In this document: one piece after another, positions 54,772-61,831 of the stretch | Layout of the letters: the number at the start of each line of letters is the position of its first letter | Position numbering within the stretch: the stretch's first letter is position 1 | Made by a program: the position numbers and the translations under genes | From: Picochlorum sp. SENEW3 | Taxonomy: Eukaryota | Direction of reading: 5' to 3' | Length of the DNA: 64,000 bases | Assembly (NCBI GenBank): GCA_034226945.1 | Contig: CP120461.1 | Location: 682,001-746,000 of the forward strand | The notes under the pieces: generated by a model | Database searches by the model: none | Seen by the model: the letters and a program-made list of their open reading frames with translations, nothing else | Told to the model about the DNA's origin: nothing

Positions 54772-56358
54772 ATGATGTCTCATTCGATGGTATTTTTGAC
54801 TGGACAGCGACTGTCTGTGGACTCTGGATGTAGAAATGTCGGAAGAAGGCATCGTCGTTCTCAGGCCACGCAGGTTCGTGCTGCGTTGGCGTCTCCATCT
54901 GAAGGTGGGTTTCATCAAGCAATCGATCCTCATATATAAATTGTGAACCCAAGCATGGGATTGTGTGTATTCTGACGTGGTGTGTGTTGCATGGCATGCG
55001 CAGGCAAGACCATGTTGGTTCAGGACTTGTCCCTTGAGGAACAGGATCCAGAGATTGCCGAGCTGATTCAGAATGAGAAGAAGAGGCAAGTGAGAGGGTT
55101 GGAGCTTATTGCATCCGAGAATTTCACGTCTACGGCGGTGATGACTGCTGTGGGGTCTTGCATGACCAACAAGTACAGTGAGGGGTTGCCTGGGGCTCGG
55201 TACTATGGGGGTAATGAATATATCGATCAGTGTGAGAGGCTGTGTCAGAATCGTGCCTTGGAAGCATTCAGATTGGACAGTAACGAGTGGGGTGTGAATG
55301 TTCAGACGCTGTCTGGTTCTCCAGCCAACTTTGCTGTGTATACTGCCCTGTTGCAGCCACACGACAGGATTATGGGACTGGATTTACCTCATGGCGGGCA
55401 TTTGACCCATGGATTTATGACACCCAAGCGTCGAGTGTCGGCAACATCGGTCTACTTTGAGTCCATGCCATACAGACTGGATGAGTCTACTGGGTTGGTG
55501 GATTATGATGCTCTGGAGAAGAGTGCTCAACTCTTTAGGCCAAAGCTGATCATCGCTGGCGCCTCTGCATACTCGAGAGATTTTGACTACAAGAGGATGA
55601 GAGAGATTGCAGACTCGGTTGGTGCATATTTGATGGCAGATATGGCTCATATTTCTGGGCTTGTTGCTGCTGGATTGGTGGAGAGTCCTTTCGAGTACGC
55701 AGATGTGGTCACCACAACGACTCACAAGTCTCTTCGAGGACCCCGCGGAGGAATGATTTTCTTCAAGAAGGAACTCGAGGGAGCCATCAATCAGGCCGTG
55801 TTCCCTGGATTGCAGGGAGGACCTCACAATCATACCATCTCAGGGCTTGCTGTTGCTCTCAAAGCTGCAACACGGCCAGAGTTTGTCGAGTACCAGAAGC
55901 AAGTCATTTCAAACGCTCGCGCTCTGTCAAAGACTCTCACAGATTTGGGATACACAATTGTATCAGGTGGGACAGATAATCACTTGATTCTCGTAGACCT
56001 GAAGCCCTCAGGAATCGATGGTGCACGGGTGCAGACTGTCCTTGATCTTGTATCGATCACATTGAATAAAAACAGTGTTCCAGGAGATAAGTCTGCCATC
56101 GTGCCCGGGGGAATCCGTGTCGGTACTCCTGCCCTGACCACAAGAGGTTTCCGGGAGGAAGACTTTGAAAAGGTCGCCCATTTCATCGACAGGGCTGTTC
56201 AGATCGCCAAAAATATCAAAGAAATGACCCCAGAACCAGCCAAACTTAAAGACTTTGTAGCGTTTGCGAATTCAGAGGGACCAAACAGACCAGATGTACA
56301 GGCCTTGAAGGAAGAGGTAGAAGCCTTTGCATCACAGTTCCCAATGCCTGGGCTTTGA
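54772..56358 (+). CDS. SHMT: Serine hydroxymethyltransferase, organelle-targeted (likely plastid)
   Basis: Intron 54905-55003; 'LELIASENF', '[15 protein letters not shown]', PLP-lysine motif '[13 protein letters not shown]', 'FPGLQGGPH'. Confidence 0.96.
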
Positions 56359-56482
56359 TCTACTACCATGCTTTGATCTCTGTAAATTGTATTTCTTCTT
56401 TACTTTTTATTACAGTCTTCAAATCGCCATGTGAAGAGGTATTCGCAAAAACATGCTTTCGGTTCAGGGTCGTTGTTGAACC

Positions 56483-59400
56483 ATGAAAGTCGTTCCTCGG
56501 ATAGTTGCATACTCTCGCATCAATCTCCAGCGGTATAGAACGAAGAGACTGTACAACTCTAGGAACCAGGTTTCAAATTCTGTACCGCAGGAAGACTTGG
56601 CAACTTTGGTGGAAAAATTGAAACGGGGCATTCAGTTTGAACAAAAGAAAGGGTTGCAGAATTGGCCGGGGCAGAATCAAATATTTAGTGACTTTTTAAG
56701 TGATGCATTGGATGCAGTTCTCCGTCACAGAGGGCTGGGTGATCGGGAATCTTTCCTCAGACTCAGTGAGTTGGTCAAGAAGAGCAAGTCGTACTCACAG
56801 ATGACGGAAGATATGAGAATGAGCGTCCTGTCTGATGTTGAGAAGATGCTGTGTCATATCGAGCAAGGGTCAGGGAAATCTGTTGGCTGTGATGGGATGG
56901 AATGCACCCCTTTTGTGTTTGACCTGGAGGCCACAGGTCTCTCGACCAAAACATCCCATGTTGTGGAGATTGCTGCTGCTAATATGGTGACACAGGAGTC
57001 ATTTGTGAGTCGTGTTCGCCTTCCAGATGGTGCATCGATTCATCCTGATGTGGAGAAGCTGACTGGCTTGCAGAGTGATGATTTCCGGGATGCATGTGTT
57101 CCTTCGTTTGAACAAGCCATCTCTGAATTCTTTTCGTTTATTCAGACAGCGTGCAATAAACGCCCTGCATCCGTTCCCTTGTTGATAGGTCATAATATTG
57201 TATCATATGATGTGCGGTTGTTGTATAATAGGCTCCAGGCTAGTGGCATGGAACGAGAACAGCGCTTTCTGCTGGAAGAGTGCTTGTTCTTGGATACGCT
57301 GAAGCTTTCCAGGGACCTTCTTGATGATGCAGAATCGTACAAGTTGGGATATTTGTACAATTATTTGACGGGGAAGCAGCCGGAGAATTCACACAGGGCC
57401 CTTGGTGATGTGCATCTCACCATGGAAGTTGTCAATGGCATCCTGCGACGTATGAACATTGATGATTTACGCCAAGGTCGTGCATCAGATCTGCTGAAGC
57501 CATACATCATCACCTCAGAGGTCATGAAGTTTTCTCATAAAAGCGAGAAAACAGCCGTGCCTTCGAAAGAAGAAGCACGTCCAAAGAAAGATGTTGGGGC
57601 CATGTTGACCAGGGATGATATTCTCAACATGGATGTGGCAGGTGACCTTGTGGCGACTGAACCGGAGCCTGATACCTTACTTTCAGATATATTTGAAGAC
57701 AAAAGAGCAATACGTCTGCAGACGCCCGTCAAAGAAATGAAAGTGTTCTCTACTGCTGACAAGAAGCTGCTGACGCAGATGGAGTGCAGCACATTGAAGG
57801 ATGTACTGTATCTCTTCCCAAGAGGATATTTGGCAGCATCTATAGGCAAGTTTCCTCAGACTGATATCGAAGTTGACCAGGCCATTGTTCTTCCGGTGTA
57901 CATGGAGAAAGTGAAAGTCTTTCGTGGCAAATTCCATATCCTCAATGCTAGTATGCGGTGCCTTGATCATGACATGGTGATGGCAGGAAGGCCTTGGGAG
58001 GGAAAAGAAACGAATCCAGTCATCGAGTATAAGGCATTTCGTCGTGGTAGATCAGCAGGTTGGGCAATAGCGAATGAAGAAAAGCGGCTCAAGGCCATGG
58101 GAAATTTCTTTGCTGTATCAGCTCAAGTGACTGTGTCTGATGCGGGCACATTTGTCATCAAAGAGAAAACGCTGGATTTGATGTCTCTGGATTCATTCGT
58201 GAAGCTTCCAAAATCCGATATCTTTCTAAGGGCCATGTATCCTCAAAAGGCCCGAATATCTGCACAGAGCGTCAGCGACATTGTCTCAAGGGCACTTGGT
58301 GCTGTGAACCAGGCTACCAGCAGGCTCCTCGAGCCGCTCCCAAGCAACATTCGTCAAAAGTATTCTATCGGTAGATTTTACGATTCCATTCAGGTATGAT
58401 TTATTTAGTGCAACGTGCTGATTTATACAAAAGTTTTTCACTACATGTGTTCTGGTCTGCAGGAAATTCATCGACCATCTTCCATTGCACAATTTGTCCA
58501 TGCTCGGACTAGTATAGCATTCCATGAGCTCTTCTTTATGCAATTGAGGCTTCTTTGTAGATCTAAAGTCTCAGATAGTGATTATTTTGAGCCAATGTCG
58601 AATTTCGAACAACAGGCATTGGCCACCAAAGCATTGAAATTTCCCCTGACGAATGATCAGGAAAGTGCATTGAAAGCCATCAATACCCTGTTTTCGACCA
58701 CACATTCATCTTCTATTTTGCTTCAAGGAGATGTTGGGTGTGGTAAAACTATCGTGGCCCTTTTAGCAGCACTTATCGTCGTAGGCAATGGAAAGCAGGT
58801 TGCTATCATGGCACCAACAGAAGTCTTGGCAGAACAGCACCTTCGATCTTTCGAACATCTCGTGACTGAGGCCTCGAAAATACCAGGATTCACACAGCCA
58901 AAATACGCATTACTGACAGGTTCAACGAAGACGGCTGAGAGAAAAGCAATCCTCAATCAGCTGGAATCTGGAGACATTGATGTCCTCATCGGGACGCATG
59001 CTCTTCTATCAGCCCCAGTCATTTTTAAAGATCTTGCGTTCGCTGTAGTGGACGAGCAGCACAAATTTGGTGTAGAGCAGAGAGCATCTCTTCTCTCAAA
59101 GGCGAATCCACCCCCTCATATGCTCAACATGTCAGCGACACCAATCCCAAGAAGCCTTGCTCTTGTCCTGTACGGAGAGATGGAATGCATTGAAATACAA
59201 GAGATGCCCCCTGGGAGAATCCCAGTAAAGACATCAGTTTGGACAGAGACTTCAACAACTCGAGATGACCTCATCCACACGATGAAGCGTGAAATTGATT
59301 CCGGAGGAAAATGCTTTGTTGTCTGCCCTCTCATCGACGCCGATGCAGAGAATGGTGTCAGAAGCGTCTTGAACGAAAAGGAGCGGTTATCAGCCACGAA

Positions 59401-59977
59401 GGAGCTTCCATCAGATGCAATAGGCATTCTACATGGAAAAATGACTGGCCCTGAAAAGGATGAGGTCTTGACCCACTTTCTCAACGGCCATCTCCAGATT
59501 CTCATCTCCACGACTGTTGTGGAGGTCGGAGTCAACATTCCAGATGCCTCCCTCATCATCGTGGAGCATGCCGAGCGCTTCGGCCTCGCCCAACTTCACC
59601 AGCTTCGTGGACGAGTGGGACGAGGAACTAGAAGCTCTCAATGCATCCTTGTGACAGAAGGCGACGCAGAAAGGCTGCGCATCCTAGAGGACACGGCATC
59701 AGGTTTCAAAGTCGCCGAGGCTGACTTGCACAGCAGAGGGTCAGGAGACATGATCGGAACTGCACAAGCTGGACAAGGTACCCTGAATTCTCATCGCCTC
59801 TGGGAGCTCCCTCGCGATGCACACCTCGTCACCCAGGCCCGAACAGCTGCCCAAGACTTCATCACTCAGTATGGCTCTGATGTCCATGCCTGGCCCCAGC
59901 ACGCCTCTCAAGCCCTCGACGACCTTTCAGGAGTCAATCTAGACATCAATGAACTACCAAACTTTACATTACAATAA
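56483..59977 (+). CDS. RECG: Organellar RecG helicase with an internal DEDDh exonuclease domain
   Basis: Intron 58394-58462; exonuclease motifs 'FDLEATG', 'GHNIVSYD', 'HRALGDV'; RecG motifs 'LQGDVGCGKT', 'MAPTEVLAEQH', 'VDEQHKFGVEQR', 'MSATPIPRSLA', 'AERFGLAQLHQLRGRVGRG'. Confidence 0.9.
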
Positions 59978-60001
59978 TAATACGACTAGTGTACATGATG
60001 A

Positions 60002-60837
60002 CTAATCCAAGTAAAAAAGAGTCACAATCTTTGTCTCTGCATGCGCCTCTCGACACGTCTCCAACAACAAATTGCTGTCATGAAACGCAAAACAAATAAT
60101 CTGCTGCACACGAGATATAATATCCCTGTTACAAATCCTCGACGCTTCCATCAAAGAAATATCATCATTCTCTGGCATCTCTATAATATTTTGAACATTC
60201 TGCAACAACTCTTGACTCTCTTGCGGCTGACATGAAAAACTCTGCGGCAACACAACCGTCAACAAGTCTGGATTCTCAGCCCTCAACGCCCCACGAATCA
60301 CAGCAGCATTCGTTCCAGTAGCCCCTGATGTAAATATATGATTCCCCTACATACATACAACATATATAGTTGGTATACATTCATTCCACACACACAGGCA
60401 ACACCCAACGCACCGTCAACACCATCGCATACGATAGAACCTCAATCAACTGCTGATGCATAAACCCCATGTTCCGAGTCCCAAAAAATCCGATATTTTT
60501 CGGATGTTCATTTTGAATTGCTAAAAACTCCTACACTCATACCAACGTCACCATCATCGCGATATACACATAAACAACACATATGTAAGCCACTTCATAC
60601 CGCCAAATAATCCTCTGTATCGGGAGGTTTCAGAATATCCTGTAATTGCTGATTAATGTAATCGATAGGATCCACACCAGCGACCATCGCATCCCCCTGT
60701 GTTGGTAGCTCTTTATTCACGATCGGTATACGATCGTCATTCATCGCTGCACATCGCTGTCTATGCTTGACGATGCGTCGTCTGTCATTCCCAAGACGAC
60801 CTACAGAGGACACCCCCCCTGCGATGCACGTTTTCAT
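60002..60837 (-). CDS. Plastid cyanobacterial-type DprA/Smf-like Rossmann-fold protein
   Basis: Introns 60531-60600 and 60347-60413; 'EFLAIQ..HPKNIGFFGTRNMGFMHQQLIEVLSYA', 'TSGATGTNAAVIRGA', 'LLTVVLPQS', 'ICFAFHDS', 'VTLFYLD'. Confidence 0.75.
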
Positions 60838-61025: not shown

Positions 61026-61831
61026 CTATTGTTGTTGTTGTTGTCGAGCTGCCCTGTCTGCTTCAAGCTCTTTGAGAAGACGTGTCAGCTCCTCATCAGT
61101 CAAGAACCGTGGACCACATCCCGCCTCAATCACAGCCACTTCAATATTGGACGTTGACCCTTCCACTACTTCCGTCAACGCTTTCAATGCTAATTTCACC
61201 GTGTCATTTCCAGACGTTTCCTTATAATTCTTCTCCATATACTCCCTCACAGACTTTGAATTCCGCCCGATCGCATTGGCCTTCCACGCAGAATACGTGC
61301 CTGATGGATCCGTCTGGTACAACGCAGGCTTCCCTTCCTGATCAAATCCCACAATCAACATGGATATCCCAAACGGACGAACACCCCCACTCTGTGTATA
61401 CTTTTGCTGCACTCCAGCAATGTATTTCGTCATGTACTCCACACTCGCTGGCTCATCCAATGTCAACCGATGGCTCTGTGCCTCTGTTCGAGCTCTATTG
61501 ATCAACACGCGGGCATCCGCTGTCAACCCAGCAAACGCCAGACAGATGTGATCATCTATTCTAGCAATCTTCCTCACCGTCTGAGACACCTGAAGCTTGG
61601 CCACCGCCTTCTTTTCCACTGCAAGAACCACACAGTCTGTCCCTCTCACCCCAATAGCGAGTGAGCCCTTTCGAACCGCCTCTAACGCATACTCAACCTG
61701 GACCACCATCCATATATAAAATAAAATATATACTTTTTTTTCCAATATATATCCATATGATGTAAGAAACGTACCTGGAATAAGTGTCCATCCGGACTAA
61801 AGACTGTGATTGCTCGATCATACTTGGCCAT
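61026..61831 (-). CDS. PSMA7: 20S proteasome alpha-4 subunit (alpha type-7)
   Basis: Intron 61698-61774; '[24 protein letters not shown]', '[16 protein letters not shown]', '[13 protein letters not shown]', '[11 protein letters not shown]'. Confidence 0.96.

Follow-up and report, generated by a model that had tools for sequence, protein, structure and literature searches.

RecG-type enzymes protect the genomes of plastids and mitochondria against rearrangement at short repeats. In a 64,000-nucleotide (nt) stretch of Picochlorum sp. SENEW3 DNA (GenBank assembly GCA_034226945.1, contig CP120461.1, positions 682,001 to 746,000 of the forward strand; hereafter the window), a locus at 56483-59977 raises the question of whether a RecG helicase can carry a nuclease within its own polypeptide chain and, if so, what such an enzyme might do. 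The original prediction, made from the DNA letters, described a one-intron gene in which a DnaQ-like DEDDh exonuclease with all of its motifs (about 56910-57430) sits behind a cyanobacterial-type N-terminal domain and ahead of the RecG wedge and helicase core, and it implied that this arrangement was new. We found that exonuclease and RecG are indeed encoded by one nuclear chlorophyte gene as one polypeptide, and that this protein belongs to a family of exonuclease-RecG fusions with a wide distribution in Chlorophyta. The architecture, however, is already known, both in the literature and in public annotations.

Results

One spliced gene encodes the exonuclease and RecG

The gene consists of two exons joined in phase across a short intron (Table 1), and its predicted product is a single polypeptide of ~1,142 amino acids (aa). 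From the N to the C terminus, this protein comprises a basic presequence, a helical N-terminal domain (N-domain), the DEDDh exonuclease, a linker, the RecG wedge, and a RecG helicase core with its TRG region. The peptides quoted in the original prediction all fall within the frame that opens at ATG 56483. Across the splice junction the protein reads ...RFYDSIQ|EIHRPSSIAQFVHAR..., with exon 2 beginning EIHRPSS, and the junction aligned without a gap to ...AIKQIHKP... in 5/5 full-length homologues that have no intron (1130-1179 aa).

The predicted splice is borne out by contigs from two public sequencing runs, X2 and X7, which belong to two different studies and skip exactly the 69 nt of the GT..AG intron. 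The X2 contig (3,732 nt, ~98% identical to the window) covers 56400-58390 and 58460-60050, with at least 255 nt on either side of the joint. Its ends lie ~36 nt before 56400, where it is colinear with the window, and ~110 nt beyond 60050, so that it looks like one mRNA of the RecG gene alone. Runs X1, X7 and X9 leave stretches of the gene without cover, and we conclude nothing from these gaps.

Close relatives have an open reading frame (ORF) of 636 aa with the same stop position at the end of the first exon (P0282, 94% identity, and P0026, 83%, over the N-domain region). A search with exon 1 returned 16 matches, namely 5 fused proteins and 11 PolC polymerases, the latter matched in the exonuclease only. 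The public contigs also record variation: those of X1 and X2 share a 3-nt in-frame insertion (GC plus C) at 57740-57741, right past the disordered linker, and the X2 contig has ~60 substitutions over the RecG gene. Close strains or species are thus present in public data.

The exonuclease domain retains a complete catalytic set

The Pfam profile RNase_T (PF00929) matched aa 145-316 with an expectation value (E) of 1.9e-17 and 64.7 bits, well above the cut-off of 24, and over profile positions 2-163 of 164; the predicted DEDDh domain thus passes a profile check. Its extent in the window (56897-57457) agrees with the range given in the original prediction. As had been proposed, its catalytic set is complete: the Exo I D-x-E (D147, E149), the Exo II D (D243) and the Exo III H-x4-D (H304, D309) are all present, and these five residues are invariant in 6/6 close relatives. 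In a family alignment of 73 rows, 64 of which contain the exonuclease, D243, H304 and D309 are found in 64/64. D147 and E149 are found in 57/64; the other seven rows are six N-terminally truncated proteins and P0030, which starts inside the domain. Overall identity within the family falls to ~20%. Because the catalytic residues are kept across this range, the nuclease of the fusion is likely to be active.

Structure prediction gave a similar picture of kinship. In an AlphaFold model of the exon 1 product (638 aa), the mean predicted local distance difference test score (pLDDT) was 84.8, and it exceeded 90 in the exonuclease domain. The best fold matches of this domain were to Plex9.1, a homologue of TREX1 (Z 21.5), to TREX1 of mouse (Z 20.9), to the epsilon subunit of E. 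coli DNA polymerase III (Z 20.2, root-mean-square deviation 1.8) and, at Z 19.8, to the exonuclease part of S. aureus DinG; further matches, with Z 18-19.6, included RNase T, 3'hExo and ERI-type RNases. Foldseek ranked TREX1 first (E 6e-10). As modelled, the exonuclease fold is therefore closest to those of TREX1 and epsilon. Searching the Protein Data Bank by sequence with exon 1 retrieved exonucleases alone (TREX1 homologues, RNase T, DnaQ and PolC) and no RecG. The fold searches with the exon 1 model were likewise filled with exonuclease matches and barely probed the wedge.

The exonuclease is followed by a linker that is disordered in part and carries a conserved ..(S/T)RDD(L/I)L(D/N)M.. 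patch in the family alignment.

The remainder of the protein is a divergent RecG

The wedge, which the original prediction had placed in exon 1, is there. By BLASTP, aa 430-636 aligned to residues 279-468 of the cyanobacterial RecG P0280 (E 2e-5), in which Pfam RecG_wedge spans residues 266-437; on the window protein itself the same profile gave a partial match (E 0.02, 15 bits against a cut-off of 23). A model of the full-length homologue P0004 (pLDDT 86.1) supports this assignment. Its residues 363-1098 superimposed on residues 11-755 of Thermotoga maritima RecG (1gm5) with Z 33.6 and 625/729 residues aligned, and Foldseek ranked 1gm5 first (E 2e-35).

Exon 2 encodes the helicase core. DEAD, Helicase_C and RecG_dom3_C all scored above their Pfam cut-offs (Table 1), so that the expected combination of RNase_T, DEAD and Helicase_C is found in the one protein. 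The superfamily 2 motifs GDVGCGKT, DEQH, SATPIPR and QLRGRVGRG are present, a conserved IHxP segment starts exactly at exon 2, and RGSGDMIGTAQAGQ aligns to the family pattern RGxGDxLGTxQSG of the TRG region. The NCBIfam RecG models matched exon 2 with E down to 2.4e-166. Exon 2 alone, which is a partial protein, reached 555 bits against the NF008168 cut-off of 718, a threshold calibrated on bacteria. The helicase part matched RecG and Mfd models of NCBIfam and did not match an XPD/DinG-family helicase core; the DinG models, including dinG_rel, matched the exonuclease region alone (aa 145-325).

The exonuclease is inserted behind a cyanobacterial-type N-domain

The original prediction had noted a likeness between the N-domain and the N terminus of cyanobacterial RecG, and we found that four comparisons uphold it. 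Positions 11-96 of the NCBIfam model NF008170 matched aa 43-130 (E 1.2e-13). This model is the top one, above its cut-off, for 3/3 cyanobacterial RecGs tested (1315-1355 bits), but not for the Chloroflexi RecG P0210. When 42 algal N-domains were compared with 69 cyanobacterial N-termini using hhalign, the two groups aligned over 86 columns with 97.8% probability (E 1.1e-12). A hidden Markov model (HMM) built from cyanobacteria only matched aa 45-128 at E 2.7e-8 and, among 282 proteins searched, 37 family proteins at E <1e-3; the reciprocal HMMs gave E 2.7e-8 and 1.8e-14. The N-domain pattern ..L..G/A.. E...G..N..G....FS.FL .. Y..(M/L)....R is present near the start of the protein, and the AlphaFold2 model places helices at 39-131, mostly with pLDDT >90.

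The position of the nuclease follows from the same comparison. BLASTP aligned exon 1 to P0280 in two blocks (aa 3-128 and aa 430-636) that are colinear and flank the exonuclease (N-domain E 9e-5); "inserted behind" is thus an accurate description. The 80 genomic relatives that match P0280 best come from cyanobacteria or from unlabelled metagenome-assembled genomes. A word-indexed single-sequence search with aa 30-135 found 2 close relatives alone and did not reveal the likeness to cyanobacterial RecG, and a protein atlas yielded no usable match. No solved structure matched the N-domain in the fold searches with the 638-aa model, which, being filled with exonuclease matches, barely probed it.

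A weaker signal extends beyond cyanobacteria. Eight long bacterial RecGs (P0221, P0236, P0247, P0252, P0254, P0264, P0269 and P0272), several of them Chloroflexi-type, were matched weakly in their N-termini, at residues ~29-85, by the latter half of the algal N-domain profile, which holds the ..Y..L....R..vL.. helices (E 0.018-0.36 among 282). From these similarities, the N-domain may be older and wider in distribution than cyanobacteria.

At the very N terminus, a short segment contains no acidic residue, and its MK..P..VA.SR motif is kept in 5/6 aligned family members, the five that possess that end. From its composition, this segment is probably an organellar targeting peptide.

The fusion is a family of green algae

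Used as the query of an exhaustive search, exon 1 matched 1,021 proteins at E <=1e-3, 10 of them at E <=1e-30; RNase_T and RecG helicase domains occurred together in 12/20 of the matches scanned with Pfam. Using exon 2, we counted at least 50 longer proteins with both PF00929 and RecG domains among the 120 matches listed. All of the listed fused homologues that were named by organism (15/15) are from green algae, with Nannochloris, Symbiochloris, Trebouxia, Elliptochloris, Myrmecia, Coccomyxa, Auxenochlorella, Bryopsis, Apatococcus, Micractinium and Scenedesmus among the carriers. In agreement with the original statement that bacterial RecG and land-plant RECG1 are devoid of a nuclease, PF00929 was found neither in two land-plant RECG models (Lupinus P0181 and Quercus P0197) nor in the named bacterial RecGs listed.

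The order of the domains is constant. In all 52 proteins in which it was detected, by a profile built from 42 of these same proteins, the N-domain precedes the exonuclease, and in 30/30 the wedge comes after the exonuclease. Twelve proteins have no detectable N-domain, and 7 of these begin inside the exonuclease. We built a tree of the helicase core with FastTree from 69 sequences over 491 columns and rooted it at the midpoint; several fused members, such as P0053, P0191, P0195 and P0239, were left out. In it the window protein falls in an unnamed clade with P0003-P0007, P0028 and P0175-P0179. The root of this tree and its relation to cyanobacteria were not resolved, and we draw no claim about origin from it.

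Some proteins depart from the full arrangement. P0031 (419 aa), P0039 (581 aa) and P0038 (280 aa) have the N-domain and exonuclease and no RecG part; they may be first-exon products of intron-bearing genes or fragments from contig ends rather than free-standing proteins. Two tandem DEDDh copies occur in some exonuclease-only matches (P0041, 371 aa; P0071, 618 aa; P0075, 505 aa).

The anatomy set out in the original prediction held in all points tested; the implied novelty is where it fails. Besides the homologues counted above, a DPD1-like exonuclease fused to RecG was reported for Micromonas, Ostreococcus, Volvox and Cymbomonas (Sloan et al., Plant Cell 2024, koae277), and a 2025 Plant Physiology review repeats the report. 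The chlorophyte architecture having been described already, novelty is not supported. We recognised none of these four genera by name among the matches listed. In the part of Zegeye et al. 2012 that lists recG in O. tauri and N. bacillaris, a nuclease is not mentioned. A literature search on RecG with DPD1, or with broader terms, found no functional study of the exonuclease-RecG fusion.

Genomic surroundings

The genes around RecG are very tightly spaced, which, together with a GC content of ~46%, indicates a compact eukaryotic genome. The X2 contig, which runs into the minus-strand ORF downstream, suggests that the 3' ends of the RecG gene and of this convergent ORF probably overlap. In the 5' leader of the RecG gene, the first of two upstream ORFs (uORFs) is an ATG followed directly by TGA (56429-56434), and the second has 8 codons (56453-56479) and ends 3 nt ahead of the main ATG; these uORFs could affect translation.

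Table 1. Features of the exonuclease-RecG gene and its neighbours, in window coordinates.
Feature	Position	Strand	Details
Serine hydroxymethyltransferase gene	54976-56358	+	Pfam SHMT E 2e-197; ends 125 nt before RecG start
5' leader	56429-56479	+	two tiny uORFs directly before main ATG; main ATG context ACC ATG A
Exon 1	56483-58393	+	637 codons from ATG 56483; presequence, N-domain, exonuclease, linker, wedge region
Presequence-like N-terminus	56483-56587	+	aa 1-35; 8 Arg/Lys, no Asp/Glu; pLDDT <50
Helical N-domain	56588-56881	+	aa 36-133; homologous to cyanobacterial-type RecG N-terminal domain
DEDDh 3'-5' exonuclease domain	56897-57457	+	aa 139-325; Pfam RNase_T
Catalytic codons	D147 56921-56923; E149 56927-56929; D243 57209-57211; H304 57392-57394; D309 57407-57409	+	
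Linker	57458-57727	+	aa 326-415; partly disordered; pLDDT <50 at 351-371 and 386-391
RecG wedge-containing region	57728-58393	+	aa 416-637; includes TLKDVLYLFPRGY
Intron	58394-58462	+	69 nt, GT..AG, phase 0; exon 1 end reads TTCAG|GTATGA
Exon 2	58463-59977	+	504 codons plus stop, in phase; TAA at 59975-59977
DEAD	~58655-59158	+	Pfam E 3.8e-22, 79.2 bits, above cut-off
Helicase_C	~59282-59623	+	Pfam E 2.3e-23, 83 bits, above cut-off
RecG domain 3 / TRG region	~59693-59869	+	Pfam RecG_dom3_C E 2.8e-8, 34.1 bits; cut-off 26.8
Convergent ORF	60002-60346	-	114 aa, without Pfam match
Proteasome subunit gene	61026-61796	-	Pfam Proteasome E 9e-60; downstream of RecG gene

Discussion

What might a RecG with its own exonuclease do? 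We consider it moderately probable that the fusion couples the remodelling of branched organelle DNA to the trimming of 3' ends. The original prediction of an organellar enzyme that would remodel forks, D-loops or R-loops and trim 3' flaps is thus a reasonable proposal. The protein would be imported into plastids and/or mitochondria, where its wedge and motor would bind branched DNA such as stalled forks, D-loops, R-loops and 3' flaps. The motor would then pull the duplex through, as in bacterial RecG, and the tethered exonuclease would digest the 3'-ended strand freed by unwinding. Such digestion would leave no way back once an invading strand had been rejected or a 3' flap removed, and the expected outcome would be the suppression of short-repeat recombination and of unscheduled re-priming in organelle genomes.

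Two lines of reasoning lead to this proposal. Import into organelles is suggested because the N terminus is basic, lacks acidic residues, is modelled as disordered and is kept among relatives, and because moss RECG offers an analogy. Digestion of the 3' strand is suggested because E. coli needs RecG in the absence of its 3' single-stranded DNA (ssDNA) exonucleases, and because plant RECG curbs short-repeat recombination. According to the introduction of PMC3542137 (citing Rudolph 2010), RecG becomes essential once these exonucleases are missing.

A more specific version of the proposal is tentative. The fusion could be an organellar "abort-and-erase" machine, in which RecG would dissociate illegitimate D-loops or convert the 3' flaps that arise from fork collisions, and the tethered exonuclease would destroy the released 3' end before the enzyme leaves the DNA. 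One polypeptide would then unite the RecG and 3' ssDNA exonuclease activities that back each other up in E. coli, and the fixed placement between N-domain and wedge would position the nuclease at the strand exit. By this account, the fusion may also stand in for the DPD1-MutS1 fusion, which most chlorophytes have lost.

Several points weigh against coupled branch remodelling and end trimming, or against the evidence on which it builds. The label of the X2 run as RNA is a guess, and the X7 contig, from an oligo-dT marine metatranscriptome, is 155 nt long and spans the 69-nt joint with only 18 nt on its short side. Full-length P0004 stays below the NCBIfam RecG equivalog cut-offs (624 bits against 718 for NF008168 and 563 against 659 for TIGR00643, with E 1e-169 to 1e-187), which marks it as a divergent RecG. 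Given a predicted template modelling score (pTM) of only 0.59-0.65 and a disordered linker, any placement of the nuclease against the wedge is tentative. The substrate may be DNA or RNA, since DEDDh enzymes may act on either. Catalysis and localisation are predictions for every member of the fusion family, and the 2025 review writes that the function of the fusion "remains to be explored".

An unlikely alternative to coupled remodelling and trimming is that the exonuclease is a DPD1-type bulk degrader of organelle DNA, serving nucleotide salvage or the elimination of genomes in inheritance or senescence, and that RecG is no repair enzyme but the motor supplying this degrader with branched or duplex DNA. 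Sloan et al. (koae277) call the domain DPD1-like, Arabidopsis DPD1 is reported to degrade both plastid and mitochondrial DNA (PMC12292046), and the 2025 review treats the fusions in the context of cytoplasmic inheritance; the closeness of the fold to TREX1-type DNA exonucleases agrees with this idea as well. The whole RecG apparatus of wedge, motor and TRG is nevertheless conserved alongside the nuclease family-wide, and a branch-specific role fits this better than bulk degradation does.

It is improbable, although the name of the Pfam family itself invites the thought, that the nuclease acts on RNA: RecG would unwind organelle R-loops, as RecG enzymes are stated to do in the abstract of PMC3542137, and the DEDDh domain would degrade the released RNA from its 3' end in the manner of RNase T. 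RNases do occur among the fold matches (RNase T, 3'hExo and ERI-type enzymes), but the best matches in both sequence and fold are DNA exonucleases, namely TREX1, Plex9.1, epsilon and the exonuclease domain of DinG. The sequence itself does not tell an RNA substrate from a DNA substrate.

We regard as very improbable a third account, in which the exonuclease domain is catalytically dead or structural, for example a module that binds DNA ends. Against it stands the retention of D243, H304 and D309 in 64/64 proteins, and of D147 and E149 in 57/57 complete rows, in a family so diverged. Finally, the idea that adjacent exonuclease and RecG genes were wrongly joined, which might be prompted by the stops that separate the two reading frames in the window and by gene callers that output a 636-638-aa exon 1 product alone (P0026 and P0282), is effectively refuted by the presence of the wedge, a defining part of RecG, in exon 1, with IHxP beginning at exon 2, and by the phase 0 GT..AG intron, the spliced contigs and the existence of about 50 fused homologues that have no interruption.

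That a RecG should carry its own 3'-5' exonuclease suggests that in green algae unwinding is physically joined to end removal, two steps which are carried out by separate proteins in bacteria and land plants. To a family that is common in marine picoalgae and model chlorophytes, the window protein adds one member and a detail of placement, the nuclease lying between an inherited cyanobacterial N-domain and the wedge. So common a family is a good target for straightforward biochemistry and genetics.

Comparison with known systems

The fusions of Sloan et al. have the same components as the window protein, a DEDDh exonuclease and RecG in one polypeptide, and come from the same lineage, Chlorophyta. 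Nothing essential differs, and the window copy has its one 69-nt intron. The site of the nuclease between N-domain and wedge, as seen in the window protein, is not described where they report the fusion, though their figures or supplements may show it. The window protein is colinear with named chlorophyte fusions (such as those of Nannochloris, Coccomyxa, Auxenochlorella, Bryopsis and Scenedesmus) and is short for the family, at ~1,142 aa compared with up to 1,686.

Cyanobacterial RecG (NF008170, ~820 aa) has a homologous N-terminal helical domain, wedge and helicase core in the same order, but no nuclease: P0280 has ~120 residues between the two blocks, whereas the alga has ~300, which make up the exonuclease and linker. 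Land-plant RECG/RECG1 (Physcomitrium RECG and Arabidopsis AT2G01440) is, like the window protein, a nuclear-encoded RecG of bacterial type with an N-terminal extension, and its helicase core is 39-44% identical to that of the window protein. Moss RECG is reported to localise to plastids and mitochondria and, in the title of the same paper, to suppress recombination between short repeats (PMC4358946). The two land-plant models, one of them odd-looking, gave no match to the N-domain profile, as they gave none to PF00929; two models are too few to conclude absence.

The algal exonuclease shares its fold and five catalytic residues with TREX1/TREX2, DPD1 and DnaQ-epsilon (Z 20-21.5 for TREX1-type enzymes), but those are stand-alone enzymes or polymerase subunits and just 21-26% identical to it. 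Its kinship to DPD1 is taken from Sloan et al., who note that DPD1 resembles TREX1/2; the likeness to TREX is reproduced here.

The closest analogy is DinG of S. aureus and B. subtilis, in which an N-terminal 3'-5' exonuclease of the DEDD type is likewise joined to a DNA helicase that works under replication stress. According to the abstract of PMC12525004, B. subtilis DinG degrades ssDNA in the 3'->5' direction. Its helicase, however, is of the XPD/DinG type and not a RecG double-stranded DNA translocase with a wedge, and its nuclease lies at the very N terminus, whereas that of the algal RecG is internal.

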